This document shows, one piece after another, positions 1 through 18,159 of a DNA stretch of 22,040 nucleotides. Position 1 is the first letter of the stretch. Each line of letters begins with the position of its first letter. The stretch comes from Thermodesulfovibrionales bacterium (GTDB lineage: Bacteria; Nitrospirota; Thermodesulfovibrionia; Thermodesulfovibrionales; SM23-35). Under the pieces are notes generated by a model. The model was not told the DNA's origin, searched no databases, and worked only from the letters and a program-made list of their open reading frames with translations. The stretch lies in contig CAVQRT010000005.1 of the NCBI GenBank assembly GCA_963715195.1, positions 1 through 22,040 on the forward strand. Direction: 5' to 3'. A program made the position numbers and the translations under genes.

Positions 1-3000
1 ATCAGCAGTCCCGTCACAGTCGTCATCTGCCTCATTACAAACATTTTCAGTGATACCGCTTGGAGTTCCAGTCTGACAGGCAGTCTCCGTACCATTTACA
101 CAAGTTGAACCTGTATTCCCAGCTGCACACTCACCAGGTAAGAAACAACTTTGATCTGATACATAATCTTCATCAGCTACACCATCGCAATCATCGTCTG
201 TACCGTCACACGTGGCATCGTCTGCGGCCGGTGTGCCAGGCATACACGTGTCATCCTGTGCTCCTCCTGTACAGGTAAGTACTCCAGCTGATGCACATGC
301 TCCAACACCGCATGATGTCGGATCGTTATACCAAATTTCTCCGGAACCGTCAGCAGTGCCTCCATTACAATCGTTGTCTATCGTGTCGCAGACCTCCGTT
401 GCGCCGGGGTTGATTGATGAATCAGTGTCATCGCAGTCAGAGCTATCCCCCAAAGGTCCCTCATACCCATCACCATCTGCATCGATATCACACGCATCGC
501 CTATACCATCCGTATCTGAATCTTCCTGGCCTGGATTGCTATCATCAGGACAGTTGTCACAGGCATCGCCTATGCCATCACCATCCGTATCACCCTGAGC
601 AGGATTAATATCATCAGGGCAATTGTCGCACAGATCGCCTATGCCATCAGTATCTGAGTCTGCCTGATCGGGGTTATAAACATCTGGGCAGTTGTCAGAA
701 TTATCACCAACACCATCGCCTTGATATCGATAGATGTCCCAAGAACTGCCATTATATTTCTGCCAAACAATTCTATTTGAAAAGACAGACGGGTAATAAT
801 TAGCCGAGGAATCCGTCGTTACCCGGTGAGGCGGCACTGCAGGCGTAGATAAATCGTATTCATAGATATCATAGTTGCCGTGAGTAGAATCCTGCCAAAC
901 AATGATGTTTCCAGAGATGGAAGGTGCTTTTTGATCATAAATACTGTCGGTAATCTGGGTTTCAATCCCCGTCGAAATCTCATACATATAAATGTCCCAT
1001 CGGCCATCCCTAAACTCTTGCCAGACGATTCGGTTTCCTGAGATTGTCGGTGCTTCTTGATTTCCTGGCTCATCGGTTATCCGGGTTTCGAACCCCTGTC
1101 GAAATGTCATACAAAAAAATGTCATAATTGCCAATATCTGTCGTCCTGCCAGACGATTTGGTCTCCAGAGATAGCCGGTTGTGATGAAGTCGAAATGTCG
1201 GTAGTAGTATTGACCTTGGTCTCTATCCCAGTAGATATATCGTACAGGAACACGTCCCATCTGCTCGCGCCGTTATCATAATTGTAGACAATGCGATTTC
1301 CTGATATCCGCGGATAAGATTGTGTTTGTGCATCGGAAGTTATCCGAGTTTCAGCTCCGTCGAACATGTAAATGTCCGTATTGCCATGCCTGTTATCGTG
1401 CCAGACGATACGGTCACCTGAAATAGATGGTCTCTCCTGACTTCCCGGGTCACTGGTTATCCGGCTTTCAGACCCGTCATATGAATAAATTTCAAAGTCG
1501 CCAACTCTGTAATCTTGCCAGACAACCCTATCCCCCCAAATTGAACTTAAGACGAAAAAGCCGGTGTTGGTATCAGCAACATCTTCCCTAATCCGGGTCT
1601 CACTTCTGTCAGAGTCTCGGCTCTCATTGTCATCCAAAGGAAATGCATCATTGAGGTCATCTACTCCATCACCGTCTGAGTCTGAATTCAATGAGTTAGT
1701 CCCGAAGACTGATTCTTCATAATCCGTGTAGTCCATCGCCATCATCATCTGCGTCTAAGCAGTCATCTATCCCATCAGAATCAGTATCACCCTCGTCAAC
1801 TTCACTATCACAGTCGTTGTCTATTCCATCGCATATCTCCGTAGCATCCGGATTTATGGATGAATCACCGTCATTGCAATCCCCCTCACATATCCTAAAG
1901 CCATCGGTGTCAGCATCCGCTTCATCAATAGGCACTTCCGTGTCACAATCATTGTCTATCCCATCACAGACTCTCGTTGCACCCGGATATGTATTGCCGT
2001 CATTGTCATCACAGTCAGTTTCAAGACCGGTTAGCTCTGTTGATACTTTATAACCCGCTGGTCTTTCACATGACGTGTTATCAACGGTTTGATCCGAGTA
2101 TCCATCATCATCCGCATCTTTCCACCAAGTCTGCCCAGGATGCTCGTTCGGATCAGCGTCATCACAATCAGTATTGTCAGCAACATATCCTCCTGGTGCA
2201 GAACATGCCTGAGTAGTTACCGAAGGATTGCCATAGGTGTCGCCATCGCTGTCCTGATAGAAAGTCATCAGAACTCCATTATCAACACTGCCGTCACAGT
2301 CATTGTCCAACCCATCACACGTTGTCTCGGTAACTTCATAAGTTGCAATACCGCTGTAATCATTAACCCAGCCGCCTGCGCCACTACAGGTCTTAGTTGA
2401 GCCCGAGCAGACGCCAGCCTGTAGGTCATTGAGCGGTGCTGTAAGGTCGTTATCAATAACACCGTCACAGTCGTTGTCTAATCCATCACAGACTTCTGAA
2501 GATGATTCTTCTGGTACGCAGGTGTCAGCTTGTGCTCCACCAGAACAAATAAACATACCGTTTGATGCACATTCTCCGACTCCGCAGTTGGTCGTTTGTT
2601 CATACCACGTTTCCCCGGAACCATCAGCAGTGCCTCCATTACAATCATTGTCTTTCGTGTCGCAGATCTCCGTTGCACCTGGATTAATTGAGGAATCGGT
2701 ATCATCGCTAGTCATAATTCATATATGAACCCGCACATTCACTTATATCCAATCCGCTTCTTCCGTAATTATCACCATCAGCATCTGTGCACGTATCACA
2801 TGCATCACCTATACCATCGGTATTAGTAGTTGAACCCGCACATTCACTCGCCACTTATATCCAATCCGCTTCTTCCGTAATTATCACCATCAGCATCTGT
2901 GACGTATCACACGCATCGCCTATACCATCAATCTGAATCTTCCTGGCCAGAATTCCATACGGTAGGACAGTTATCTGTAACATCTGGCACTCCATCCCCA

Positions 3001-6000
3001 TCTGTGTCAGTTTCGGTGGCTGTTGTGAAGCTCCATATGTAATCTGACAACATGCTGTTACCTGCACTATCTTTCACTCCTGTGGTGATAGTTGCAGTGT
3101 ATGTCGTGTTACTATTAAAGTTCGCATCTGGATTGAACGTCGCGGTTCTAATACCGGGATCGTATGACACGGTTCCCGTTACCCCGCCATTTAAATAAAA
3201 TGTCGTCCCGTTAATAGTTGTTTCATCCATGTTTTCGCTGAATGTTGCGGTGACATTGCTATCAACCGATACATCAGTTGCAGCATTGAGCGGATAAATG
3301 CTGCTTACTGTCGGGACTGATGTGTCGACATATCTGGAATAGAGATAGTATTCCACTGAACCCCTCTCACCGTGACTGAGCGTAGGGTTATAAATGATGA
3401 GCTCGGAAATATCGCCATTAAAATATTTGTCGTCACTCGCATCTCTTCCGATCTCATTCGCATATCCAGCCCCGCCGATAAATGTGGCAGCGACGAGGGC
3501 CTTTTCATCATCGTCTTTAACGAATGTAAAATGTGCAGGCTGATCTTTATCCAACCCATTATGCTGCAAGGTGACAATTGATATGGGTACAAAGTCTGAA
3601 GAGTAATTAGACGGCAAGGTCGTAATCCCATCAAATCCCCTGTAGCCGAAGTACGGTGAGTCCCCAATAAAGCCCAGATTTCCGGGTGCCCCAAAGCCGA
3701 AGAGCACTTCCTCATCAACGGTTGTTGTTCTCACCCTTAGCGGAACCACAGAGTCCTTTGAATCATCTGTCAATCTCAATGCAGCAAAGATAGAGAATCC
3801 ATTCCCAATGAGGTTGTTTATCCCGTAATCCAGGTAATCGTTCAAACCGTCAAAACGCAGGGTCGGCAGCCCGCCCGATCCATATTGGATCCACAGAGGT
3901 CGCCTGGACAGGTCTGTTTGTGTGGCATCGTTCAAAAAGCCGCTTTGGTCTGCCCATGCGCTTACATAATCTGTCACATCTTTCGTAATTCCAGCATCTG
4001 CCTTCAGCCAAAGCTGCATGCCAAGTGGCAGATAAAAGGACGAAATATAGGCAGAAGCGTCAACATAATCGCTCACCATGTTTGTCCCGGATAATGGCGG
4101 CCCCGATTCGCTTCCCCAGTAGTTAAACTGGGCATTGACTGTTATGGAACTACTCGTGTTCTGTACCGAGTACGTCGTGTTGTCAGCAATGTTGTTGCTG
4201 GCGACTCCCGATCCTCCGATCACCGGATTGGCATTAGACATACAATAGATACCGATGTCGTTTGAATGAATGGTGTTGTTGTAGACATCCGCATTGGCAG
4301 TCGTCAGATAGATGCCTTCGTTTGTATTGGAAGATATGGAGTTCCACTGTATTGTTGGATTAGAGCTAAGGACGTAAATCCCCTGGTCATTGTTCTTGAT
4401 GATATTTCCATCTATCATTATGGTGCTGCCTGTGTTATTCGCGAGATTTATGCCTCTTCCAGCGTTATCCCTGATGATATTATTGCCGATAAAGTGGTTC
4501 CCCGATGAGCTGGTTATAACGACTCCGTGAAGGTGCGTGTTTCTAATTACGGAGTTGGTCAGTGTGAGATTTCCAGTCCCGCTTTTGTACACTGCGCAGT
4601 TACCCGAAGTATAGCCAGCGTAACTGATTTCGCAATAATCCAATGTTGCAGAACTGTTGGTGTCTATCCAAATTGGTCCCCACCAGTTTGGTGCCGGAGA
4701 AATTTCGGGCTCGTCACCATTGCTGTCACCGCCAACGGTATCATCACTGTCAGCGGTGAAGTAAATCTTGTTTGCCGGATCTCCCACTGCATTGAGTGTC
4801 CCATTATTGATACTCAGATATTTGGACTGCGCAAACTTGATAATTCTTCCCGGTGCTATCGTAAGGGTAATGCCGCTGTTGACCGTCACATTATCATTTA
4901 TATAATAGACTCGTGTGCTCGCCCAGGTGGTATTGCTGCTGATATAGCCGGTTTCAACATATACGGGGTCTGTAATCTCTGAGTCGTAGTTGGAGGCGGC
5001 ACCGGAAGCACTTGCAGAAAACCCCATGGCGCCAAGGGCGTTGAAGGTAGGCGGAGGTCCTGCAACGCCAAAATTATTACCGCTGATAGTTGGCACCGAT
5101 GTGCCGTCAAGATATATACCGTATCCCCCATTGTCCTCTATGTAACAGTTGCTGATATCAGGACTGCTGTTCCACAGGCTTATTCCATGGTCGGCATTGT
5201 TTCTGATTGTGCTGTTGTTTATCGAAATTACGCCGCTCGCACCGTAAAGGTCTATTCCGCTATAAGTGCTATCCTCTATGGTGCTTCCGCTGATGGTTAC
5301 ATCCGCTGATCCAATGTTTACCTGGACGCCATAGCCCTTTGTGTGGGTTATTTTAGAATTGATTAGCGAGAGGCTTCCCGTCCCCGACTTATAAATTGCA
5401 TAATTGGTGTCTCCCGCATACCTGACTTCACAGTGACTCAGCGTCGCATGGGCGCCGTTCACTACATAAATTAATCGCCAGTGGCCTCTGCCCGGACTAC
5501 CGCCGGCTCCATCCGTATCCCCGCCCACGGTATCATCACTGTCAGCGGTGAAGTAGATCTTGTTTCCGAGTGACCCAATTGCATTCAATGTCCCACTGAT
5601 ATAGAAGCGCACCTTGGATGCAAACTTGATGACGACTCCTGGATCTATCGTAAGGGTAACACCCCCGTTGACCGTAACTTCGCCCTTTAGATAGTAAACC
5701 CTGCTGCTCTGCCACGCGGCGTTGGAGTAAACAGTTCCAGCCACTACATATACCGGCTCTGTCGGGAGGATTCCATCATAGTTTTGAGCTGCATCCGCAG
5801 CGTCCGGAGAAAACCCCATAGAACCGGAGGGATTACCGCTCGCGTTGGCAGCAGTAAAACTATCAATAGTCGGGGCAGATATGCTGTCTACAGCATCTAA
5901 ATATATGCCGAAAGTACCATTGTCCTGAATAGTACAATTTTGTATATCAGGATTACTTTCCTGTACCAATATCCCATTAGCCGTGTTGTTGCATATGGTA

Positions 6001-6689
6001 CTGTCGATTATTGAAATATTGGTTGAATTATATAGGCGTATTCCACTCCACTCGCTATGCTCAATTGTAGTTACATTATCGATTACAACAGGTGCTGCTG
6101 AGCTATATATCTCAACTCCATAGCCAGATGAGTAAATTACTTTCGTGTGGTCGAGGGTGAGGCTGCCGGTACTCCCTGTCTTGAATAGTGCTCTCTTATA
6201 ACTCGCTCCGGTATACCTCACTTCAGTGTAATTCAGTGTCGCCGATCCATTTTCATACACAGAGATACCTGCCCACCAGTTTGGTGCCGGAGAAATTTCG
6301 GGCTCGTCACCATTGATGTCACCGCCAACGGTATCATCGCGGTAGTCAGTGAAATATATGGTGTTTCCGTCACCGGAGGTCCCGTTTGCATTCAGCGTCC
6401 CATATACCGCAAGGTATTTGTTTTGCGCAAATTTGACAACAGCACCCGCTTCTATATCGAGGACAACTCCGCTATTGACAGTAACATGGTCGACGACATA
6501 GTAAGGGCTGTTTGCCAGAGTCCATGTTGTATTCGTAGATGATCCGGAGACAGTTGTGGTTGCATTCAGAAGAGAAGGCACTATGATTCCCGAGACAAGA
6601 AAGGCGAAAATAAAAACGATAAAGCTTCTGCATATAACATTTCTATTTCTTATCGATGCCTTGCCAAACATATCCTTGCCCTTTTTCAT
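1..6689 (-). CDS. Giant secreted/surface protein (>2200 aa, runs off the window start; split by probable sequence-error frameshifts). Domains: signal peptide, 3 right-handed beta-helix modules, LamG/ConA-like domain, Ig-like (Big_5-type) domain, thrombospondin type-3-like Ca-binding repeats, MopE-like Cys/Asp repeats and a 7-blade beta-propeller
   Basis: ORFs 2928..6689, 1717..2715, 1122..1748 and an open frame 1092..1 join end to end with motif continuity ([12 protein letters not shown], [25 protein letters not shown], PxISGxRIVWQDxR). ATG 6689 is preceded by GGGGGG and followed by a hydrophobic signal-like segment. Confidence 0.85.
721..1607 (-). other. Seven-blade beta-propeller domain within the giant protein (resembles the Methanosarcina-type surface beta-propeller repeat)
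   Basis: Seven ~40-aa repeats ETRIT..Q..P.ISG.RIVWQD.R.G..DIY.YD, read across small frameshifts at ~1134 and ~1093. Confidence 0.8.
1717..2715 (-). CDS. Middle fragment of the giant protein: MopE-like putative metal-binding repeats
   Basis: Repeated [20 protein letters not shown] and DCDDxDxxxxPGA motifs. It has no signal peptide or RBS of its own, so it is a fragment. Confidence 0.8.
   Translation of the reverse strand: MTSDDTDSSINPGATEICDTKDNDCNGGTADGSGETWYEQTTNCGVGECASNGMFICSGGAQADTCVPEESSSEVCDGLDNDCDGVIDNDLTAPLNDLQAGVCSGSTKTCSGAGGWVNDYSGIATYEVTETTCDGLDNDCDGSVDNGVLMTFYQDSDGDTYGNPSVTTQACSAPGGYVADNTDCDDADPNEHPGQTWWKDADDDGYSDQTVDNTSCERPAGYKVSTELTGLETDCDDNDGNTYPGATRVCDGIDNDCDTEVPIDEADADTDGFRICEGDCNDGDSSINPDATEICDGIDNDCDSEVDEGDTDSDGIDDCLDADDDGDGLHGL
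2726..2929. repeat. Imperfect ~95-bp tandem duplication with indels (probable assembly/consensus artefact)
   Basis: tgaacccgcacattcact..tatatccaatccgcttcttccgtaattatcaccatcagcatctgtg..tataccatc occurs at 2726-2818 and 2831-2929, and the reading frame is broken several times here. Confidence 0.75.
2928..6689 (-). CDS. N-terminal part of the giant protein: beta-helix repeats + LamG-like + Ig-like domain
   Basis: 1253-aa ORF. Three modules of TxWxxxxxYY..VTVxxGVTLTIxPG..KFA..IYFT..DDTVGGD with IxNNxxxGI beta-helix coils; [37 protein letters not shown] (LamG-like); [39 protein letters not shown] (Big_5-like). Confidence 0.85.
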   Translation of the reverse strand: MKKGKDMFGKASIRNRNVICRSFIVFIFAFLVSGIIVPSLLNATTTVSGSSTNTTWTLANSPYYVVDHVTVNSGVVLDIEAGAVVKFAQNKYLAVYGTLNANGTSGDGNTIYFTDYRDDTVGGDINGDEPEISPAPNWWAGISVYENGSATLNYTEVRYTGASYKRALFKTGSTGSLTLDHTKVIYSSGYGVEIYSSAAPVVIDNVTTIEHSEWSGIRLYNSTNISIIDSTICNNTANGILVQESNPDIQNCTIQDNGTFGIYLDAVDSISAPTIDSFTAANASGNPSGSMGFSPDAADAAQNYDGILPTEPVYVVAGTVYSNAAWQSSRVYYLKGEVTVNGGVTLTIDPGVVIKFASKVRFYISGTLNAIGSLGNKIYFTADSDDTVGGDTDGAGGSPGRGHWRLIYVVNGAHATLSHCEVRYAGDTNYAIYKSGTGSLSLINSKITHTKGYGVQVNIGSADVTISGSTIEDSTYSGIDLYGASGVISINNSTIRNNADHGISLWNSSPDISNCYIEDNGGYGIYLDGTSVPTISGNNFGVAGPPPTFNALGAMGFSASASGAASNYDSEITDPVYVETGYISSNTTWASTRVYYINDNVTVNSGITLTIAPGRIIKFAQSKYLSINNGTLNAVGDPANKIYFTADSDDTVGGDSNGDEPEISPAPNWWGPIWIDTNSSATLDYCEISYAGYTSGNCAVYKSGTGNLTLTNSVIRNTHLHGVVITSSSGNHFIGNNIIRDNAGRGINLANNTGSTIMIDGNIIKNNDQGIYVLSSNPTIQWNSISSNTNEGIYLTTANADVYNNTIHSNDIGIYCMSNANPVIGGSGVASNNIADNTTYSVQNTSSSITVNAQFNYWGSESGPPLSGTNMVSDYVDASAYISSFYLPLGMQLWLKADAGITKDVTDYVSAWADQSGFLNDATQTDLSRRPLWIQYGSGGLPTLRFDGLNDYLDYGINNLIGNGFSIFAALRLTDDSKDSVVPLRVRTTTVDEEVLFGFGAPGNLGFIGDSPYFGYRGFDGITTLPSNYSSDFVPISIVTLQHNGLDKDQPAHFTFVKDDDEKALVAATFIGGAGYANEIGRDASDDKYFNGDISELIIYNPTLSHGERGSVEYYLYSRYVDTSVPTVSSIYPLNAATDVSVDSNVTATFSENMDETTINGTTFYLNGGVTGTVSYDPGIRTATFNPDANFNSNTTYTATITTGVKDSAGNSMLSDYIWSFTTATETDTDGDGVPDVTDNCPTVWNSGQEDSD

Positions 6690-7067: not shown

Positions 7068-7103
7068 ATTAAACCCCATGAGAGGTTACAGATAGGTTAC
7101 AGA
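7068..7103 (-). promoter_or_regulatory. Putative activator-dependent promoter, copy A: TGTAACC-N4-TGTAACC direct repeat, 10 bp, then a TTTAAT -10-like hexamer
   Basis: GGTTACA at 7084-7090 and 7095-7101 (11-bp period). 34 of 36 bp are identical to the copy at 9120-9155. Confidence 0.6.
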
Positions 7104-7230
7104 AAAAGCGCTAAAGGCCGAAGTGCTGAAGCTCTGAAAGCTTTTTTCATATATTTATCAAGGTAATAGCACTTTTTATAAAAGTAATTTGCTATCATAT
7201 GTGTTTTCAGGAAAATGTATAGATATTCAA

Positions 7231-8634
7231 TCAAATATCATCGACATTCACTACTCTCAGGATGGCTCCTATTTGGTTAACATCATTATTCAGTTTGTCC
7301 ATCAGCCGGTTTAGATCTAAGCGATGCTCATCCTTATAAAAAAGGAACAGCCCCATCATCTTCTCTCTCTTTCTGTCGCGAGGCTGATTTGATAGTCCCA
7401 TTTTTTGCATCAACGGCATAAGTGTATCGGTTATCTCAGAAACATTGTTAAATCTTTCTGCCGGGTCTCTCCGTATGCTCTTTACGATAACGCTCTGGAG
7501 TTCCTCCGGAAGATCGGGAATCAGAATACGAGGGTCCGGAGTATTTTCGTTTAAATGCAATTGCAGCAATTCCCCAAGATCGTCTTCAGGAAACGGCCTT
7601 TTCCCGGTGAGCAATTCGTAGACCATGATCCCAAGAGAATAGATGTCTGTACGTTCATCAACCGGTTCACCCTGTATCTGTTCGGGAGACATATAAAAAA
7701 GAGTGCCGGGCATATTGAAATCCATGCTGCCTTGCGGACATGCAAGGCCGAAATCGACAATCTTTGCCTGCCCGTCCGGTTGTATATAAATATTGGAAGG
7801 CTTGATATCCTGATGGATGATACCTTGTTTATGGGCGTATTCCAATCCGGAACACACCTGTAAAATAATATCCAAAAGCACGGAAAGTGATGGCCTCGGC
7901 ATATTTGCGAGTAGATATTCAAGAGAAGATCCCTCGAGGAATTCCATGATAATAAAGACCGTCCGGAAACGTTCTTCTATGTCGTACACTTTCACAATAT
8001 TCGGATTGTTCAGACGGGCTATGGTCTTTGCTTCGTACTCGAACTTTTCCAAGAACTCAGGATCCATGGCAATATTATGTTTCAGCATCTTAACGGCAAC
8101 CGGAAAATTCAGAATAGTATGTATACCCTTATAAACGATGCTCCATGCCCCCTGGTCAACGATGTCACGTATGGTATATTTTCCGATAGTCCTGTTGGCA
8201 GTAATTTTTGAGGAAGAAAACCGTTGTGCAACTATCTCGGTCAAGAAATTTCTGAGATCGGGAAATTCATGACAGAGGATATCGAATTTTTCCCTTGTAA
8301 GACTCCATAAATCCATATCTGTTTCGGCATCAACATGAGTGCTCCGCGGTTCACCTGTTAACACCGCCATCTCTCCCACTACGTCTCCGGCTTTTAGGCG
8401 AGCGACTGAATTCAAAGTATTATCCTTTTCTAAATTAACGATGCACGATCCACTTTGGATAATATAAAGACTGTCTCCCTCATCTCCTTGTGTGATAAAT
8501 CTCTCTCCTGCTTTAACCTGTTTGAATTCCAAATTGTCCAACAATGGAGCGATTGAATCATGGGGTATAGAAGTCAAGAGTTTTGTACTCAGAAGGAACT
8601 CAACAGTGGATACCTCGTGATCTCCCCTTCTCAA
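7231..8634 (-). CDS. Cyclic-nucleotide-binding domain fused to a Hanks-type Ser/Thr protein kinase
   Basis: N-terminus ITQGDEGDSLYIIQSG..GDVVGEMAVLTGEPRST (cNMP phosphate-binding cassette). Kinase motifs VAVK, HQDIKPSN, DFG, YMSPEQ and DIYSLG. The TTG start overlaps the upstream TGA. Confidence 0.92.
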   Translation of the reverse strand: MRRGDHEVSTVEFLLSTKLLTSIPHDSIAPLLDNLEFKQVKAGERFITQGDEGDSLYIIQSGSCIVNLEKDNTLNSVARLKAGDVVGEMAVLTGEPRSTHVDAETDMDLWSLTREKFDILCHEFPDLRNFLTEIVAQRFSSSKITANRTIGKYTIRDIVDQGAWSIVYKGIHTILNFPVAVKMLKHNIAMDPEFLEKFEYEAKTIARLNNPNIVKVYDIEERFRTVFIIMEFLEGSSLEYLLANMPRPSLSVLLDIILQVCSGLEYAHKQGIIHQDIKPSNIYIQPDGQAKIVDFGLACPQGSMDFNMPGTLFYMSPEQIQGEPVDERTDIYSLGIMVYELLTGKRPFPEDDLGELLQLHLNENTPDPRILIPDLPEELQSVIVKSIRRDPAERFNNVSEITDTLMPLMQKMGLSNQPRDRKREKMMGLFLFYKDEHRLDLNRLMDKLNNDVNQIGAILRVVNVDDI

Positions 8635-9098
8635 TGCAAGTCACCTTCCACGATCTTGAAACCCGCCATAGTCAGGGGTGGGTCAATTTTACTGTCTATC
8701 CACATGACCTGAGCTTTTACCTTTGAATCCCCCGCCTTGATATTCATCCTCTTCCCAATTGGCAAAGCTATCTTCTTATTCAACTCGATCCCAATTCCAT
8801 GGTGAGAAGCATTCGTGAGAGTTGCATTGACTCTCTTTTTATGAAGTAAAAATGAAAGTGGAATCTGTTTTTCAGTTCGAGGTTCATTCCTGCGCTCAAC
8901 TCCATGTGATGCGACAGACGATATGTCGTGCACTTTTAATTTTTTCTGCCCATTCTTACCCGATTTCAGGATGCTCCAGAGTTCATCATAGGTAATAAAT
9001 ATTTCTTTCCCCTTAACTCCAACTTTTTCTACCACGCCGAGAATACTCCGGGGTTTATTTTTCTCTTTTCGAAAAATCCGGACAACATAGGTTTCCAA
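8631..9098 (-). CDS. PilZ-domain protein (c-di-GMP receptor) with a small N-terminal domain of unknown function
   Basis: ERRNEPR (RxxxR) and NASHHG (D/NxSxxG) motifs. The likely start is TTG 9098 after AAGGAGGAGA, rather than ATG 9131, which falls inside the promoter block. Confidence 0.8.
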   Translation of the reverse strand: METYVVRIFRKEKNKPRSILGVVEKVGVKGKEIFITYDELWSILKSGKNGQKKLKVHDISSVASHGVERRNEPRTEKQIPLSFLLHKKRVNATLTNASHHGIGIELNKKIALPIGKRMNIKAGDSKVKAQVMWIDSKIDPPLTMAGFKIVEGDLH

Positions 9099-9119
9099 AA
9101 TCTCCTCCTTTTGGAGAAT

Positions 9120-9155
9120 ATTAAAACCCATGGGAGGTTACAGATAGGTTACAGA
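9120..9155 (-). promoter_or_regulatory. Putative activator-dependent promoter, copy B (same direct repeat and -10-like hexamer)
   Basis: GGTTACA at 9136-9142 and 9147-9153. Minus strand TGTAACCTATCTGTAACC-TCCCATGGGT-TTTAAT lies just upstream of the PilZ RBS. Confidence 0.62.
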
Positions 9156-9272
9156 AGCGCTGAAGGATGAAGAGCTGAAGACTGAAGGGTAGAAAAAAGA
9201 AGAACTGGAGAGCTGAAGACTGAAGTTCTAAAAGCTAAAAAACTCAAGAATGGGGAACTGGAGGCGAAATAA

Positions 9273-9406
9273 CTGAAGGATGAAGAAAGTAGAACTGAAG
9301 TGCTGAAGGATGAAAGAAAGTAGAACTGAAGTGCTGAAGGATGAAGAAAGTAGAACTGAAGTGCTGAAGGATGAAGAAAGTAGAACTGAAGTGCTGAAGG
9401 ATGAAG
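9273..9406 (+). repeat. 30-bp tandem repeat, ~4.4 copies, inside a purine-rich CTGAAG array (9155-9450)
   Basis: Unit CTGAAGGATGAAGAAAGTAGAACTGAAGTG at 9273, 9303 (one extra A), 9334 and 9364, with a partial copy at 9394. There are no spacers. Confidence 0.97.
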
Positions 9407-9473
9407 GCTGAAGCTTTAAGTCTAAAGACTAAAGATCTTAAGGCTGAAGTAGAAACAAACAGAGTCTAAGTTG

Positions 9474-9509
9474 TTGAATTTAAGATCTTATCGTGCTATC
9501 CTGTTGGCT
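9474..9509 (+). promoter_or_regulatory. Sigma70-type promoter abutting the start codon (predicts leaderless mRNA)
   Basis: TTGAAT 9474-9479, a 17-bp spacer, TGn-TATCCT 9494-9502, 7 nt, then ATG 9510. There is no Shine-Dalgarno sequence. Confidence 0.6.
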
Positions 9510-9872
9510 ATGTCGAATTACAGAAAACTGATCGCATGGCAAAAATCCGACGAGCTTGCTTTAATGGTATACAATGTTACGAAGAATTTCCCTAAGCAGG
9601 AGTTATTTGGTCTTACCTCGCAACTGAGGAGAGCAGCTCTTTCTGTACCCACAAATATTGTTGAAGGATATAATAGAAAAAGCAAAAAGGAATTACATAG
9701 ATTTATTGATATCGCATTAGGTTCGCTTGCTGAAACTGAGTATTTAATAGAGTTTTCCCAAAAACTTGGCTATATAAAAGGTGATATTTCTCATATCGAA
9801 ACCGCTATCGTTGAAATTGGTAAACTTCTCTGGAGTTTCCAAAAATCACTTTTAACAAGAACTGAACCCTGA
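9510..9872 (+). CDS. Four-helix-bundle protein (23S rRNA intervening-sequence protein family, structural relative of DGR Avd), 120 aa
   Basis: MSNYRKLIAWQKS..T..FPKQELFGLTSQLRRAALSVPTNIVEG..RF..IALGSLAETEY..LGYI is the family signature. It is the only + strand gene. Confidence 0.93.
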   Translation: MSNYRKLIAWQKSDELALMVYNVTKNFPKQELFGLTSQLRRAALSVPTNIVEGYNRKSKKELHRFIDIALGSLAETEYLIEFSQKLGYIKGDISHIETAIVEIGKLLWSFQKSLLTRTEP

Positions 9873-9920
9873 AGCTTTTCTTCAGCCTTCAGCTCTTCAT
9901 CCTTCAGTGCTTTTTGCTCT

Positions 9921-12900
9921 TCAGCTCTTCAGTATTTCAGCCCTGAGTGCTTCTGTTTCAGGTGAAGGCTCTATTCCCAGCACGGCAGAAAAAGTTTTAC
10001 GACAACGATTGTAAACCGCAAGGGCTTCTGCCTTTCTTCCCATACGCTGATAGCAGGCCATGAGGCGCTGATAAAAGTTTTCGGCGAGGTCATCCACTTC
10101 AATGCCCTTGCGAAAAAGGGATATTGCGCTTTGCACTTCTCCCCTCTTTTCAGAAAAAAGTCCAGCCATCTCAATATTTCGAAGAAATCTATTTCTGAGA
10201 TGTTCACGAAAGGATACTACCCAGGGCTCACCGTCATCGGCCAAAAAATGCCCCGCATATAATTTCAAAAGCTCTTGCGAAAGCGACATGATATTCAATT
10301 TGATTTCCCCTGTTATTCCTCCCGTCCAAACAGATTCCAAACGATTCAGAATCCGCTGCAGAAGCCACGCATCAACCCAGCAGCAACGAGGGTCGATTGT
10401 TACTTTTCCATCACTGACGATCAGGGCTTTTTCACTATCTATCAAGTCACGGAGACGAGATAGAGTAGTTTTAAAAGTTATATGAGCAGCATCACCATAT
10501 GCATCTGGCCAAAGAACATCAATGAGACGATCTTCTGAAACACCTTTCCCTCCGCAAGCAATCACTGCTTTCAGGAGCAGAAGCGGTTTTTGATGTGCCC
10601 TCCCTCGGAATTGCACAGGGCTGCCCTGTTTTACTAACCCAAACCGACCTAAGGTATAGATCTTTAACGGCCAGGGCCATCGTTCATCAACTGCAAGAGT
10701 ATCTGGGGGAGGGATCGTATTTCTTCGGATAAGAGTCTTTATATATTTTTCTTCAATTCCATGCTCGAGTGCTTTCGTTAGGACAGTTTCCAGGACACGA
10801 GGTTCAGACATAAATAGATTCATAAATCCTTTTTCTCGTCCCTTCTTCATCCCCTTGCGTATTGCCTGGAGAGCAGGCACTTCTTTTCCCTTCCTCAGGT
10901 AAAAGTATGCCTCGGTCAACAAACAGATAAAGGGCACAAATTCATTGTTGCTTTGCAATCCAATGGTGCGAGCTCGTGAAAGATTTTTGAATGCCTGTTT
11001 ATTCTCCCCAAAGGCATCTGCAAGATAGGCTTTCAGTATATAGGCGACAGAAAGGGTCCATGGATTACCGATATCTTCACACAGCCTCAGACATTCTTCA
11101 GCATGAGTTGATGCCTGAGGAAGACTACCCTGATACAGGGCCGCCCAGGCAACGCAGTAATGGTAGAAACTCTTCTCCCATGGCTTCATAAGGCCTGATG
11201 CAGAGACCATTTTTTGAAGAAACCGCTTTGCCTGAGGAATATTTCCACTTTTTAATGAGCTTATTATGCCGTGTCCCAACAGCATATGTTCCATGACTCT
11301 GATCTTAAGGGATCTTGCCAGTTCAAGACCTTCGCCAACCACGTTCCCGCATTGTTCATACATCGACATCACATTAAACAAAGCAGCCCTCAACCAGTTC
11401 ACAGTTAATATAGTCAATGGAGGTACATCATACCGTTGAATCATGCCCTGCAACGTTTCGAGGGCAATCTGCAATCCGCCGAACTCGCCTGAACTATATA
11501 GGTAACTGGCCTCAGCAGTTAACATCCTTATTTTCTGATATTCTTCCGAGCTCCTGTCAGTGATGGTGCGGATGCAGTTTACCCATTTCTCCGCATCAAT
11601 ATAAGGAGGTCTCCTCAGGGTGAGTATCTTAAAGACGCTTAACACAACTTCGACCTCGGTGTCTTCAGAAGGAAATCCCCCATACTGTTGTATCATCCGT
11701 TCGACTTCTTTTACCAATTGGTCAAGCGATTTCAGACTTTCCCGGCCGAGTACGATCGATTCCACAAGCCCGGCCCATGCCAGAAAAGAACCTGCCGCTT
11801 CATGAGATTCCTGAAAATCATAAAGTGCCTTCTCAAAATACCTCTGGCTCTCATCTGGATCAAACGGCAGTTTGGATACGCCTGACCAGTAGAGCAACCA
11901 GGGATCAGCAGGTATAGCTTCTTCAGGAATTAATAACAGCCAGTTCTGGAGCGTCCCGTATCTTCCCTGTCTTATTAAGGACGGTGCCCATTTTAGAATA
12001 ATGGATATCAGACTTTTTACGTCTCCAGATTCATGAATCAAACGAACGGCATCTTCTGCATGTTCTGATTCTTCAAGGAGCATTGCGGAATCATGTTTGA
12101 TCATGGATAACGTGGCTGGGTCAAATGCACTTTTTGCCATGGAAAGTAAAAACTCCCGGAAAAGCTGGTGATACCGGTAAAAAGTGCTTCCCTTCAATAT
12201 TTTTTCGTGAGAGTATTCCTCTATAAAACAACATTCCCTGATCAGGTTGTCCAGGATGGTACCGGCATGTTTCATACGAGTAAGTTTAGCGGCCGTGTCA
12301 ATACTCATTACAGGTAAGAAGCATGTCCTGAGCATGAAGTCCTGCGCATTCTTGTCTGTCTTGAAAAAAACCTCTTGACCAAAATAGTCAAAGATATTCT
12401 GTGACGAAACCGTGACAGGTAGTCTCTCGTTATGAGACTCTGCATCGCCGCTCTTAAGAAAAAGCATGAGCCCGGCAGCCCAGCCGTTTGTCTTATCAAA
12501 AAGAGCACGAAGAACATTTTCCGGAAACCCACCCGGCATCTCCTTCTCAATGAGTTCCCTTGTCTCTTCCACAGTAAACTTCAGTGCATCCCAACCAATG
12601 ATATGAGCCAACCCATGAACGATAAGACGTGCGAATGCAGGCGGTGGGTCCTTTCTGCTCAAAATGAAAAAGGTAAAACCTTCGGGAACCCCTCGTAATA
12701 CATTGGCGATAATTGCATGAAACCGTGAACTGGCAGGCATTTCATGATAGTTGTCAATAACAAACATAAAAGGTTTATTGATTCTGCTAAAGATTGCCTC
12801 GAAATAGCGATGCGAAAAAATAAGATCTCCACGTGCATGTTCAGCCGTATAGCGGGGCAATAGATGCCTTTTCTTAGGAAATAATTTCCGAAGGGCAATT

Positions 12901-13168
12901 TCCGTATAATAAAAAAAGGTCCCAATGTCTTTATCTCCTTCATCGACCGAATACCATAAACAGGGAATATTGCGGTCAGATGCATAACTTGAGACAAGCG
13001 AAGTCTTGCCTGATCCGGCCGGGCTCACGACAAAAGTTACCGGTAATTTTCTGCTGTTGTCGAGAATCGTGAAAAGTCGCGGTCGTGGCAGTATTCCAGC
13101 CACAGCAGGGCGGGTTATTTTCGGGAATAAAAGGAATCGTTTTTTGGTACGATTATTTTTTATCCCAT
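9921..13168 (-). CDS. MalT-like STAND ATPase transcriptional regulator with a helical/TPR-like sensor and C-terminal SARP winged-helix + BTAD domain
   Basis: Walker A SPAGSGKTS, Walker B FVIDNYH, TNGWAAGL, YRYHQLFREFL. C-terminus IYTLGRF..LIDVLWPD..LSRLR..WVDA..LYAGHFL..YQRLM..GIEPSPET. The ORF is called from 13103, but the frame extends upstream (KITRP). GGAGGGG + ATG 13168 is one base out of frame. Confidence 0.9.
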
Positions 13169-13203: not shown

Positions 13204-13972
13204 TTACACCCTTATCGTATCCCCATCCTTCAATATCCTCATGTGCCTGAGGCTGAGTTTCTTCAGTTCATTTTTGATAATTCCGTGATACTGTGGTTTT
13301 AAATGCGTAATACAAATCTGCTCCGGTTTCTGTTGTATTTTCGCCAGTTCTTTTACCAGCAATTCCGGCGTCAGGTGCCCGCTTCGTAACGCCATTGCAC
13401 TCAAGGCATTCGGGAATGAAACGTCGATGATGAGGCAATTCAGTTTCTTATTCCCGAGTTTTTCCCACGTTCTGGCAGACGGCCCCGTATCCCCGGTATA
13501 AAAAAATCTTCTACTCTTTTCATCTTCGACAAGATATCCAACTGCCGATACAGTGTGATTCACCTCGTATGGAGTAATGGTGTAACTGTTCACACGGATT
13601 GACCTTCCCGGCTGAGAGCTTCACAAGGTTCAATATCGCATCGTCAGGCTTGGGGAGGATCGTAAAATCGGGCCACATGGCGCTGTTGAACAAGTGCTCC
13701 TTTATCATTCTTAAAACCGGGGGGATACTGTAGAGCGAGACTTTATTCTGTTTTTTTGAAACGATAATATTATCGGCGAGAAATGGAATGCTTGCGATGT
13801 GATCAAGGTGCGCATGAGTGATGAAGATATGTTTTATTTTCATCTGAGCCTTTTCATCCAGCACCCCGGTAAAGCTTCCTGCATCGAATATGATTTCTTC
13901 ATTCAGAAGAAAACTCGGGGTCTTATGCCCCGGCAATTCCGCACCCGAACAGCCTATGACCTTGATTTTCAT
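13204..13972 (-). CDS. Metallo-beta-lactamase-fold 3',5'-cyclic-nucleotide phosphodiesterase (class II-like), split by one frameshift at ~13603
   Basis: MKIKVIGCSG..FDAG..THAHLDH..WPDF (13520..13972) continues as VNHTV..YTGDTG..DVSFPN..GHLTP..THLKP (13204..13593). RBS AAGGAG. Confidence 0.85.
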
Positions 13973-14046
13973 GGCATGCTCCTTATCATTTCCACCAGTC
14001 CCACATTTATAAAATCTCGTCCATAAAGTTCCTACCTAAAGAGTCC

Positions 14047-14120
14047 GTCATTCCCCGACTTGATCGGGGAATCCATTTCTTCAATATCTTCTGGATTGTC
14101 CGGTCAAGCCGGACAATGAC
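14047..14120. repeat. REP/RPE-like double-hairpin palindromic element, copy 1
   Basis: GTC-ATTCCCCGA-CTTGA-TCGGGGAAT-CCA..TGG-ATTGTCCGG-TCAAG-CCGGACAAT-GAC. Confidence 0.88.
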
Positions 14121-14141
14121 AAAACATTAATTTATGTTGCT

Positions 14142-16615
14142 TTACGAAGAGACCTTGTATATCCTTACCCCCTGCTCTTTCCCTTTCACTTTAACCTTTG
14201 CGAGATCGATAAATTTCACCCCGCTCATACTACCAGATTCGATGCTCTTTCTGATATGCTCATAGGTAAATTCTGTAATCAGTATCCTCGATTCATACTG
14301 CCGGGTGATCTTTTCCACCCGCGATGCGAGATTGACTGTGTCACCGATGACCGTGTAATCCATCTTCATGCCCTCCACACCGATGTTGCCGACCAGTACT
14401 TCACCGGTGTTGATGCCTATGCCGCAGTTGAGAACCGGCTTGCCCTCCTTCTCCCATTTCTTCTGGAGTTCATCGAGCGTCTTCGAAACCTCGAGTGCGC
14501 ACTGTAACCGCAAGTTCGGCATGGTTCGGCTGCGGAAAGGGAGCCCCCCAGAATGCCATGATCTGGTCGCCTGCAAACTTGTCGAGCGTGCCCTGCCACT
14601 TAAATATCCCGTTGCTCATTTCTGTAAAGTATTCATTGAGGATCGAGACTACTTCCTCCGGCTGCAGTTTCTCTGAGAGTGATGTGAACCCAATAAGGTC
14701 CATGAATAAGATCGTGACAGTTTTCCTGTCACCGCCGAGATTGACCTCTACATCCTTGTGGATGATATCTTCGACAACCTGGGGTGATAGATAACGGGAG
14801 AGATTCGTCCTTATGATCTCTTCCTTCTTGATCTGGTCAACGAGTTTGGCGTTTTCGATAGCCACTGCCCCGCTGTTCGCTAAGGTATTCAAAAGATCGA
14901 TATCCTCACGGGTGTAAAAATGACCCGACTTCTTGTAGCCAAGGGCAAGGGCTCCCTTGACCGTATCCTGATGCAGGAGAGGCAGCACCATGCTTACCCC
15001 CATTCTCGAAAACCGGTCAGTGCAGGTATCCCTAATATCCCTGTAGCGAGGGTCTTCGTTTATGTCGTAGATGGTAACGAGCTTCTTGTCTTTTGTGAAA
15101 TGCACATCAATAAACGGGTCATCGTATTGTATGCATTCGTTCTCATTGGTCTTGACGTTGATCAGTGCTCATCGCCGAGAAACATAGTCTGGCACTCTTT
15201 CTTCTTGTCATCGAGAATAAGCACGCCTGCCTTATCAATAAACATTTCAAGCCTCGCTGTATTGATGAGCTTCCGAATGATTTCGTTCAGATCAAGCATC
15301 GATGACAGTGCATTGCTGACCTTCGTGACCGTCTCCTTGTAGTCAAACTTCTTTCGATAAAAGAGCTTGTCTACGGCGGTTTGAACTGTCCTGTTGAGAG
15401 GATTGAAAAAGAAAACGACAATAATCGCAAAAAGGACCGGGTAGATTTTTTCCGAGTGTTCGCCGAAGACCGGCTGGAACGTCGTCCTCACTCCCACCTG
15501 TAGCGAGAAATACGTCAGGCCGACGACGGCGGTCATAATAGCATACCCAACCGCCCTTTTGACGTAGACGTCGACATCGAAGAGGTTGTGCTTTGCTATT
15601 GCATACGCGATAGATGCAGGGAATATGATAATGGGAATCGAGGAGAAATTCGTGATGATTCTCATCCCACCAAGCGTTTGCCCCAAAAACGCGGCAAGTG
15701 GACCAAATGCCGGGATTGGCAGGGCAAGCAAGGCTCCAAAAAGGACCACCTTCGCACGCTGTCTCGCCAGGACTGATGCTTTCTTTGCAAAAGCATGCAG
15801 AGTTGCAACAATCAGCGCAAGGGCACTAAAAGCTGCATAGGCAAGAACAATGGTATAAAATGGGCTGAACGCTGGCCGGGGATAGTAGATCTGTATAGGA
15901 ATAACCAGCACAGTCGAAAGAATATACGGCACAACCTCAAGAAACGGACGTTTTTCGATTAACTTTGTTCTTTCAGGAAACAAAAGGCTAAGATGAACAA
16001 CAACGGCAGGCAGAAAAGCATCATCGAAAAGATACAGCCTTACGAAACCAAAGTGGGTAGACTCCATATCAAAGGACATGAATGATGACACACCCTGCAG
16101 GAGGCATGCCATGGAAAAAACCCAACTGACCTTTGTATCCGGCTTGAGCATGAAAACGACAACGCCGATTAATAGGTAGAGAATCCCCTGGAAAAAAAGG
16201 ATGCCGAAGGTCATGACCATGTCTATGCCGGTAAAACGCATCGTTGGAATGGTTACCCGAATAACTTCGGCCTCTCTCTTAACTTCGTATTGCATCGGAG
16301 TGCCTACCTTAGTATTCAGAACTATTTCCTCGAGAGCCTCCGCAGAAGAGACTTCTTTCCCATTGGCTCTGAGAATCTTGTCAGGATACTTCAAACCGGC
16401 CTGTGTTCCGGTCCAGTGGTACTGACCGATATATCCGACAACCATCCGCTGATTGACAAGAAAACCCGGGAATGGTTTATCGATCCATTGCACGGCATTC
16501 CATATGCATACTGCGCCAATAGTCAAGGCAGCAAGGATGAGTCGATAAAAACAACCCTGCCGATGGATTGTCCGCCTGGTAAGTTTTTAGAAAAAGAGGA
16601 TATCATGCTATTCAT
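14142..16615 (-). CDS. Membrane-bound class III adenylate cyclase: TM-PDZ-like domain, multi-TM region, GAF, cyclase (frameshifts at ~16545, ~15170 and ~14500)
   Basis: QAGLKYPDKILRANG (PDZ-like), several hydrophobic helices, GALALGYKKSG..EDIDLLNTLANSGAVAIENA (GAF), LFMDLIGFT, DKFAGDQIMAFWGAP, GIGINTG..DYTVIGDTVNLASRVE. The Lys and Thr specificity residues indicate an ATP substrate. The start (16615 or 16606) is inferred. Confidence 0.87.
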
Positions 16616-16643
16616 ATCTAAAATTCGGATAAGATCTTTCTCC

Positions 16644-16727
16644 GTCATTGCCCGACTTGATCGGGCAATCCAGTGTCGAATAAAAAGCTCTAAAGAACTG
16701 GATTATCCGGTCAAGCCGGATAATGAC
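16644..16727. repeat. REP/RPE-like double-hairpin palindromic element, copy 2
   Basis: GTC-ATTGCCCGA-CTTGA-TCGGGCAAT-CCAG..CTGG-ATTATCCGG-TCAAG-CCGGATAAT-GAC. Confidence 0.88.
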
Positions 16728-16854
16728 ACCCACTGGAACGGAGTTCGCCATGAATCTACTCAAGAATAAGCTAATCTCACAAGACAAAAGAATGCAATAA
16801 GTCCTGCCCATTTTTTGGAGAGGAAATTTTCTACGTATGTAAAAATCTTATATC

Positions 16855-18108
16855 TCAGAAATAGACCTGAAGCCCTAATCCTATGTATTGAGACTTAAAG
16901 ATATTATTTGAACCGGCAAATCTGTTTCGATATGAAATGGAGCCAGTGAGGGGAACCGGGAATTTTTTTGCCATATAGAGCGGCAATGTCGAATAGGATA
17001 ATGTGCCGATAAAAACGTGTTCTGTATAATCAGTTTCATCTTCCAGTGATCTGTATGCATATCCTTTATTACCTGAAACATCATCTTTCAAGGCAAATCC
17101 GTATTTATAATTTAAAGTCGCATCAAATCCAGGTGTTATGGTGTATTTCCCTGACACATCAATTTCAATAACATCACCGATGTCCCTATCAACTTTCTCC
17201 TTGTTTGCAGTAATTGGCAGGTCTACATCATCAGGGATTCTTAATTTTTCATGATCAGGCAATATCAGATCGTATCTGAATGTTGCGTTGAGCACTACAT
17301 TCTTTATACCGGTGTAATCATTGTTTAAACGGAAAAGCAGTGCATAGGCACCAGCTCCTATGGGATAGGCAGTTAAATCATCAGGATCGTCTATCTCGCC
17401 GCTCGGGAACCGCACCCCCCCGGTAAAAGCAAGCCTCCACTTTTCTGTTTTCAAATACTGATATCTGGCTCCCAATTCAATATCACCTACACCGTTATTC
17501 TTAAAAGTTCCGAATTCCTTATATCCGAAGCCGGGAACGTCAATAGTCCCATCCCCATTGATATCAAGGCCCTTAGCTAAAAGAGCTATGACATCCTTTT
17601 TCGTCAGGGGAACTGTTCCCGGGACAGCGAGGGGGACAAGGTTATTTAAAGCAGCATTTTTGCCAACGGTTGCAGCAGAGGTATCCAGACTCGATTTCAC
17701 CTCATTCTTGACCCACCAATACGGCAGTAAAATTCCCACCGAGAGCTTGTCAGTTACACCGTACATGAACGTCATTTCCGTTATTGTGAAGTAATAGTCA
17801 AATGAAACATCAGTTTTCCCAAGATTTGCGGATCCCGGCGGCATGCCGAAAAAATCTTCTACAAGACTTAAATCGGTAAAGACGGTGCTATCCAAAGTGG
17901 TATTGTAATCTCTTGCTACGTCCTCGGTATCGCCATCAGGGTCATAACGCTCATTGATCTTGAAATAAAACTTGCCGTCGAGGCTGATATTTGCCACCCC
18001 CTTAGGCAACACTTCAGCACTGTCGGCATAACAAATAGCAGCGATTGCCAAAAAGATGAGACAGATTAAGAAGCTACTTCCATACATCATGCGTCCTCGC
18101 CTTTTCAT
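16855..18108 (-). CDS. Probable outer-membrane beta-barrel protein (resembles the MetA-pathway/'transporter' family)
   Basis: Signal peptide, YGVTDKLSVG.LPY, GVGDIELGARYQ..GGVRFPSG, alternating beta-strand pattern and C-terminal GLGLQVYF. RBS AGGGGG precedes ATG 18108. Confidence 0.68.
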   Translation of the reverse strand: MKRRGRMMYGSSFLICLIFLAIAAICYADSAEVLPKGVANISLDGKFYFKINERYDPDGDTEDVARDYNTTLDSTVFTDLSLVEDFFGMPPGSANLGKTDVSFDYYFTITEMTFMYGVTDKLSVGILLPYWWVKNEVKSSLDTSAATVGKNAALNNLVPLAVPGTVPLTKKDVIALLAKGLDINGDGTIDVPGFGYKEFGTFKNNGVGDIELGARYQYLKTEKWRLAFTGGVRFPSGEIDDPDDLTAYPIGAGAYALLFRLNNDYTGIKNVVLNATFRYDLILPDHEKLRIPDDVDLPITANKEKVDRDIGDVIEIDVSGKYTITPGFDATLNYKYGFALKDDVSGNKGYAYRSLEDETDYTEHVFIGTLSYSTLPLYMAKKFPVPLTGSISYRNRFAGSNNIFKSQYIGLGLQVYF

Positions 18109-18159
18109 GGTTTTCCCCCTTTTTTGAATTCTCATTGACCATTATATAACATCATGTGC

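Follow-up and report, generated by a model that had tools for sequence, protein, structure and literature searches.

A four-helix-bundle gene between inverted arrays of 7- to 8-nt repeats at a regulator-PilZ junction is built like a 23S rRNA intervening sequence and is likely a mobile passenger without its own transposase

The intervening sequence (IVS) in the 23S rRNA of Coxiella burnetii has been described as an element with the protein S23p, a 28-bp stem, heptamer repeats that vary among strains and cleavage by RNase III, and the passages of that paper drawn on here state its origin to be unclear (PMC4990558). Excerpts of two papers on Avd describe a four-helix pentamer of diversity-generating retroelements that binds specific RNA (PMC6182149; PMC10053308). 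Intergenic heptamer repeats of Xanthomonas and Nostoc are left unexplained in the relevant passages (PMC4692102), and for the TAACTGA repeats of Beggiatoaceae a repeat-binding protein was raised as the mobile part (PMC4679880). Furthermore, 18 PF05635 genes lying between cas genes were treated as cas-associated, and the part of that paper used here mentions no arms (PMC3936711). Our literature search, which covered sources outside subscription journals and supplements, found no description of arm-flanked copies of this family outside rRNA.

Here, we followed up a first-pass annotation of a 22,040-nucleotide stretch of DNA from a Thermodesulfovibrionales bacterium (the whole stretch is called the window), which had reported a lone antisense gene of the TIGR02436/PF05635 family between 33-bp inverted repeats. 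Re-measurement gave the same values: positions 9155-9187 match 9880-9912 in inverted orientation at 31 of 33 positions, the longest inverted repeat among 131 pairs in the window. All 16 copies of the motif upstream of the gene (9160-9449) read CTGAAG on the plus strand, with a 17th overlapping the gene stop, and five CTTCAG copies follow the gene at 9880-9932, reaching into the last codons of the neighboring regulator. The outer left arm (9155..9225, plus strand) consists of degenerate 7-8-nt CTGAAG/GATGAAG units and includes the left 33-mer. A tandem expansion of a 30-nt unit built from arm motifs comes next (9273..9413, plus strand; 98% matches, with 4.4 copies at 9273-9406), then an inner left arm of variant CTAAAG/CTTAAG/CTGAAG units (9422..9449, plus strand) that is 79% complementary to the right arm. 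The right arm (9880..9912, minus strand) is made of CTTCAG/CTTCATC units, with unit indels in other strains. A local 6-bp hairpin (9869..9885; CTGAAG, 5 nt, CTTCAG) spans the gene stop codon, and extra arm-like units (9918..9940, minus strand) run across the stop and last codons of the regulator. With its left array expanded, the cassette measures about 760 bp. Ten nucleotides recur in direct orientation at 9408 and 9869, perhaps by chance.

The inverted arrangement of the arms is therefore real. As bounds of the element, however, the 33-mers proposed by the first-pass annotation stood only in part: the CTGAAG arms are inverted, but the arrays run on over 9160-9449 and 9880-9932, and the 33-mers are the outer parts of degenerate CTGAAG/CTTCAG arrays rather than discrete or fixed termini. 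The best arm match in 1000 base shuffles was 23/33, and unit-preserving shuffles reached at least 31/33 in 16 of 2000 runs when both sides were shuffled and in 34 of 2000 runs when only the left side was. A match this good is thus rare under motif-preserving shuffling, although most of it comes from the motif common to both arms, and the excess beyond the motif is modest.

The enclosed gene (9510..9872, plus strand) is intact and antisense to both neighbors. ATG 9510 is the likely start, because homologues begin there, and gives 120 residues. The protein scored 119.7 bits against the TIGR02436 profile (cut-off 24) and 121.8 bits against PF05635 (cut-off 33.8). Its predicted model (pLDDT 94) matched the Xcc0516 pentamer 2GSC with a TM-score of 0.92, and of the RxxxSxxxNxxE core, R41, S45, N49, and E52 are present, with Q38 replacing the G of the published consensus. 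It is the sole ORF of at least 80 aa in 9155-9912, hence there is no transposase inside, as the first-pass annotation had stated. The location outside rRNA also held, since no Rfam family reached its gathering score within 8900-10100 and the neighbors are protein genes. Two Rfam snoRNA matches, far below gathering score, were taken as chance. Among viral contigs, 12 pattern matches yielded no confirmed close relative of the protein. Plasmid matches (33 records, mostly cyanobacterial) were all <60% identical, and the one plasmid copy inspected had arms of a different motif.

The element resembles the Coxiella IVS in several traits: its protein belongs to the family of S23p, its terminal stem spans about 30 bp, and tandem heptamers precede the start codon. 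The passages on Coxiella also report a strain-variable heptamer number, a patchy distribution and a proposed horizontal origin (PMC4990558). In contrast to 23S IVSs, the window element lies between protein genes, its ORF is antisense rather than sense to the host, and its gene is intact with a predicted promoter of its own, in a unit of about 760 bp with gene-less versions at the same site. The element thus has the anatomy of an IVS without belonging to that class, as two defining features, the rRNA location and the sense ORF, are missing. The modeled protein shares the fold of Avd (TM 0.76 to 4DWL), but at 13% identity, under the cut-offs of the Avd models (NF033474, 35.2 vs 80; PF22296 for bAvd, 36 vs 40) and without a reverse transcriptase (RT) in the locus; the genome's four RT matches are on C15 and C25, with none on C5 or C3 and none beside the gene. 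As in REPIN-RAYT systems, in the accounts drawn on here, a gene is tied to inverted repeats, and gene-less doublets and single arms are scattered between genes; the gene here is not a HUH transposase, however, its arms are runs of 7-8-mers instead of palindromic REPs, and gene and arms cross phyla. An insertion sequence or MITE differs in that the cassette holds no transposase. The arms themselves show unit-level variation among strains. Period-7 arrays at gene junctions, often of convergent pairs, recall the heptamer repeats, but a link to this gene family is absent from the passages in question (PMC4692102; PMC4679880). Finally, several close relatives are found within or next to CRISPR-like arrays or cas genes, whereas the window copy is not in a CRISPR locus.

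To the right, the cassette is bounded by a host regulator gene (9921..13103, minus strand) encoding a MalT-like NTPase/TPR/BTAD protein of 1060 aa, and on the other side lies a host gene with a C-terminal PilZ domain (8631..9131, minus strand), followed by a gene for a cNMP-binding Ser/Thr kinase. Two TGTAACC boxes, 11 nt apart (9136..9153, minus strand), stand outside the cassette at its left boundary. SARP-type regulators bind boxes spaced 11 nt, and by this analogy the pair is likely the regulator's putative binding site. The annotated spacing was reproduced at both ends: the last GGTTACA box ends at 9153 and the arm starts at 9155, two bases past it, and the right arm lies 8 bases from the regulator stop (9921-9923), whose last codons carry the motif as quoted. 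A second box copy with a single arm remnant and no gene lies within the window (7084..7140, minus strand), where a promoter was likely duplicated along with a piece of arm. This promoter stands upstream of a large minus-strand ORF starting at 6689, likely another target of the regulator. Among the seven neighboring proteins scanned, there was no site-specific recombinase. The window further holds two genes split over frames, possibly by sequencing errors, one with a metallo-beta-lactamase fold, class II cAMP phosphodiesterase-like (13204-13972), and one PDZ/membrane/cyclase-like (14142-16526), which with the cNMP kinase and PilZ genes form a cyclic-nucleotide signaling island. Positions 1-6689 encode one or more large secreted-type repeat proteins with Cys/Asp-rich repeats, beta-helix-like segments, and several broken frames.

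We compared the same junction in relatives, where the first-pass annotation had suggested looking for empty sites. No four-helix-bundle gene followed the regulator in 11 family, 6 order, or 15 metagenome homologues (4 of the 15 being duplicates, and two family loci having <450 nt of downstream DNA), and the exact 31-nt regulator-end pattern occurred in no metagenome stretch. Empty sites did occur: in 6 of the 11 family homologues the junction was bare, with TGTAACC-type boxes 14-100 nt past the stop codon and arms absent; four had no recognizable box, and in one (G022) the corresponding position held a gene-less CTGAAG...CTTCAG hairpin of 144 nt. Besides this hairpin, five other arrays are gene-less doublets or single arms. 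By sequence comparison, then, the gene is optional at this site. Single arm remnants adjoin such boxes at 7084-7140, at a second G022 promoter, and in L103/L119, suggesting that an arm has long been present at this promoter. The arm-like units at 9918-9940 may likewise be older than the insert, because a regulator homologue without any cassette (L034) ends in AEILK, identical to the C-terminal residues of the window regulator. An exact pre-insertion site with a target duplication was not found, no bare site being close enough. In other lineages, the same gap is filled by unrelated repeats or a small two-gene module. In L085, L105, L106, L108, L111, L122, L124, and L128, an insert of 850-1010 nt there holds two small antisense genes, AbrB-PIN toxin-antitoxin-like, with pyrimidine-rich repeats at the end, and these inserts mark the regulator-box gap as an insertion hotspot.

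Seven sequencing runs from near strains were also compared. In the independent run X2, positions 9394-9640, including part of the 30-mer array, were covered without a difference, and the right arm had unit indels. In X4, a 202-nt contig joins 9184-9214 to 9918-10076 via 12 other letters and skips the gene, and in X6, from a different study, a contig end before 9895 carries the same core letters. These letters are absent from the window's cassette, so the gene-less allele is not a plain deletion of it. A 198-nt contig of X5 has 9488-9609 (8 differences) on the opposite strand, then 45 unseen letters, then 9895-9925; this would be a sister gene in reversed orientation beside the arm on the regulator side, if the contig is not from a different site. 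Filled, empty, and possibly flipped alleles thus seem to coexist at this junction, although the allele contigs are short, of depth 2-4 and with 31-nt sides inside or near repeats, and give hints rather than proof. For the first-pass proposal of a mobile or invertible element, this means that the optional repeat-plus-gene unit holds up, while inversion hangs on the one 198-nt contig and is weak.

The assembly itself contains a 93%-identical second copy of nearly the whole window with many frameshifts (G000:C3:121843-143456). A third copy, 89% identical, covers 13204-18930 (G000:C4:676-6391), and the C3 and C4 copies represent a strain mixture in the assembly. We rejected C3 as an independent insertion, as it is the same locus inside a duplicate of the whole window; nor is the 457-nt identical core of window and C3 special, with three other identical runs at least that long. 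Changes in C3 are biased toward third positions in most genes, and 10 of 27 tested differences are common with near-strain runs, indicating that C3 is a genuine second allele. Missing from C3 are three 30-mers, the last 59 nt of the gene, and one identical 8-nt unit in both arms, although the region around its regulator is rich in errors (62 gap columns) and its arm differences may be assembly artefacts.

Inverted flanks on other family copies, for which the first-pass annotation had proposed a test, were common. A PF05635 search of 41 related genomes gave 139 matches, with over-cut-off copies in 30 genomes. From these genomes we examined 90 loci (60 near-full-length among them), together with 22 from a species-wide collection; 90 of the 112 were full length, and 86 remained after removing short flanks and duplicates. 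When upstream DNA was locally aligned with the reverse complement of downstream DNA, 60 of the 86 loci had inverted arms over the cut-off and 26 missed it, compared to 4 of 1313 control ORFs of this genome (six-frame calls rather than curated genes). Inverted 6-mer scores exceeded the control 95th percentile in 62 of the 86. Direct 6-mer matches were likewise raised in 34 and exceeded the inverted ones in 29, as would follow from cassettes or their remnants lying one after another. The arm motif, of 7-8 nt, is each locus's own, and the insertion sites, labeled from translated flanks, include a hisA-hisF junction, kinase-regulator pairs, a tRNA pair, and cas operons. Of the three outcomes that the first-pass annotation had named as speaking against its reading (universal synteny without inverted repeats, flankless family copies, and a 31/33 match by chance), we found none.

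Arm motif and protein are related. Among the 15 proteins with at least 58% identity to the window protein, 8 are flanked by CTGAAG-type arms (the other 7 lack the strict CTGAAG label), compared to none of 70 more distant ones. The labeled loci come from six phyla (Acidobacteriota, Ignavibacteriota, Edwardsiibacteriota, Margulisiibacteriota, Elusimicrobiota, and Nitrospirota) and fall into one branch of a quick tree, with equal clustering in 0 of 500 label shuffles; the tree (123 columns, many open forks) is weakly resolved and was used for clustering only, and kin share labels. At the level of sequence comparison, this shows that gene and arms are co-inherited across phyla, and the motif-clade link speaks to co-inheritance, not to binding.

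Orphan arrays of period 7/8 numbered 48 in this genome, compared to 17-21 at control periods; with a crude coding mask they cannot be called intergenic, and only the period excess is usable. One stretch (G000:C30:269172-269231) has a CTGAAG array followed directly by a CCTTGAA array, a hybrid gene-less remnant. In G022, CTTCAG arrays (L225:590-610 and L226:97-124) lie apparently inside long frames, ybeY-like and bioA-like by translation. In L018 (~1300-2100), an integron-integrase-like gene, by translation, is interrupted by a cassette of another motif, and in L027 (~950-1135) foreign DNA, perhaps an intron or insertion sequence, splits a four-helix-bundle gene close to the 5' end.

Orientation toward the neighbors, called with a crude longest-ORF rule, could be assigned on both sides at 55 of 89 loci examined: 44 copies were co-directional, 7 mixed, and 4, including the window copy, antisense to both. 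A consensus two-hexamer scan found no sigma-70 promoter and no terminator. Upstream of the window gene is a predicted extended -10 box, TG-n-TATCCT (9494..9502, plus strand), with 4/6 matches to TATAAT, 7 nt before ATG 9510 and with no Shine-Dalgarno sequence. Such a box 5-8 nt before the ATG, again with no Shine-Dalgarno sequence, precedes 11 of 23 genes of the protein's clade and none of the 72 family genes outside it; among background ORFs, the count is 51 of 1330. The pattern was chosen after seeing the sequences. Positions 9494-9502 are thus likely a leaderless promoter of the cassette, which would explain its rare antisense position. This suggests that copies outside operons may bring their own promoter, and that making the protein may matter to the element. 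Five of the 11 boxed genes, compared to 1 of 12 others, stand beside regularly spaced CRISPR-like repeats, with the cassettes' own arrays (two matches) uncounted. Close relatives in L059, L067, L068, L207, and L011 are placed within CRISPR-like arrays or at their ends, some occupying a spacer slot between two repeat copies, and in L058 and L062 the cassette follows a cas4-like gene.

On balance, we consider it somewhat probable that the cassette is one copy of a widespread, IVS-like element acting at the DNA level, which recombination between like arms brings in, removes, and inverts. Gene and arms would travel together horizontally, and gene-less hairpins would be leftovers and landing sites at once. 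Between arms, host recombination or template switching would exchange, invert, or delete the enclosed DNA, as suggested by the unit-number variation, the matched changes in both arms, the gene-less hairpins, and the possible flip. The leaderless promoter would transcribe the window copy and permit its antisense site, whereas most copies would ride a host operon. In the weakest step, the predicted pentamer would bind its own arm motif as single-stranded RNA or DNA and so favor spread. At this site, the cassette is likely a mobile passenger without its own transposase, proposed to be tolerated because it sits between a stop codon and an intact promoter. No mobilizing enzyme was identified, and first arrival at an arm-less site is left unaccounted for by arm recombination.

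Spread could instead occur at the RNA level, with RNase III cutting the arm stem and the Avd-like protein recruiting a host RT. The passages on the Coxiella IVS, with its 28-bp stem, heptamers, and RNase III cleavage (PMC4990558), and those on Avd, whose binding of a specific RNA segment enables reverse transcription (PMC6182149), provide a precedent; for either strand, the arm duplex comes to about -56 to -57 kcal/mol, this genome carries RNase III and RT genes, and the 44 of 55 copies sense to their host fit as well. However, no RT match was obtained in 14 of the 30 genomes that carry an over-cut-off copy, including G017 with 12 family matches, the window gene is antisense, its leaderless transcript would lack the 5' arm, and whole-cassette folding is ordinary (z -1.3 and -1.6). 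G-U exceeded A-C mismatches on the sense strand (118 vs 89; 31 vs 17 loci; p about 0.05), but this excess, the one hint of pairing in single strands, is marginal and would fit RNA as well as single-stranded DNA. We therefore regard an RNA-level unit as unlikely. Action on the arms by a trans-acting enzyme, either HUH/Y1 as in REPIN-RAYT or a tyrosine recombinase, with the gene as cargo or specificity adaptor, seems to us a poor prospect: the gene-less doublets and single arms do resemble REPINs and REPs, but arm motifs vary between clades with no fixed terminal sequence, and the only Y1 gene of this genome has perfect hairpins of its own, unrelated ends, and no heptamer arms. Of 30 genomes with the gene, 29 have a Y1 domain, as do 5 of the 11 without it, but kinship and general mobile-element load confound this co-occurrence.

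The first-pass annotation had also suggested that the element could couple or uncouple the regulator from its target, through cassette orientation or an RNA stem acting on the PilZ-kinase operon. The cassette fills the entire gap from stop to box, arm remnants adjoin such boxes at other promoters of this genome and G022, a possible flipped allele exists in X5, and antisense transcription would enter the regulator's 3' end. Yet boxes and downstream gene lie together outside the cassette and stay joined in every allele, the 6 bare family junctions have boxes and no arms, the gap elsewhere holds the unrelated repeats or two-gene module, and the neighbors scanned include no recombinase. A local control device is therefore very improbable, the regulator-PilZ switch is unsupported, and the cassette is probably of little consequence for the host operon. 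We find it scarcely credible that simple repeats misled assembly or polishing and so produced both the 31/33 match and the differences between alleles. The bin does hold the frameshift-rich 93% copy, and unit shuffles attain 31/33 about 1-2% of the time, but the independent run X2 is identical over 9394-9640, including part of the 30-mer array, and 60 of 86 loci, drawn from many assemblies, show this layout too.

Three long-standing questions lack an accepted answer: where ORF-bearing rRNA IVSs come from, what the very common TIGR02436 proteins do, and why intergenic heptamers are in excess. This locus ties them to one unit. New here are the apparently filled, empty, and flipped alleles at one site, the cross-phylum link of motif and clade, and the self-promoter subclade, and the link of arm motif to protein clade makes a swap test of binding specificity possible. 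Tentatively, and with doubts that outweigh our confidence, we raise a broader reading, namely an undescribed class of transposase-free elements in which an Avd-like pentamer recognizes its own heptamer arm and drives insertion or exchange at gene junctions, with rRNA IVSs, gene-less arrays, and the self-promoting clade all derived from it. If this is true, 23S rRNA intervening sequences would be the copies inserted into rRNA, the 7-8-mer arrays dispersed in many bacteria would be gene-less leftovers, and the clade of the window protein would be a self-promoting branch capable of settling in antisense positions or CRISPR arrays.
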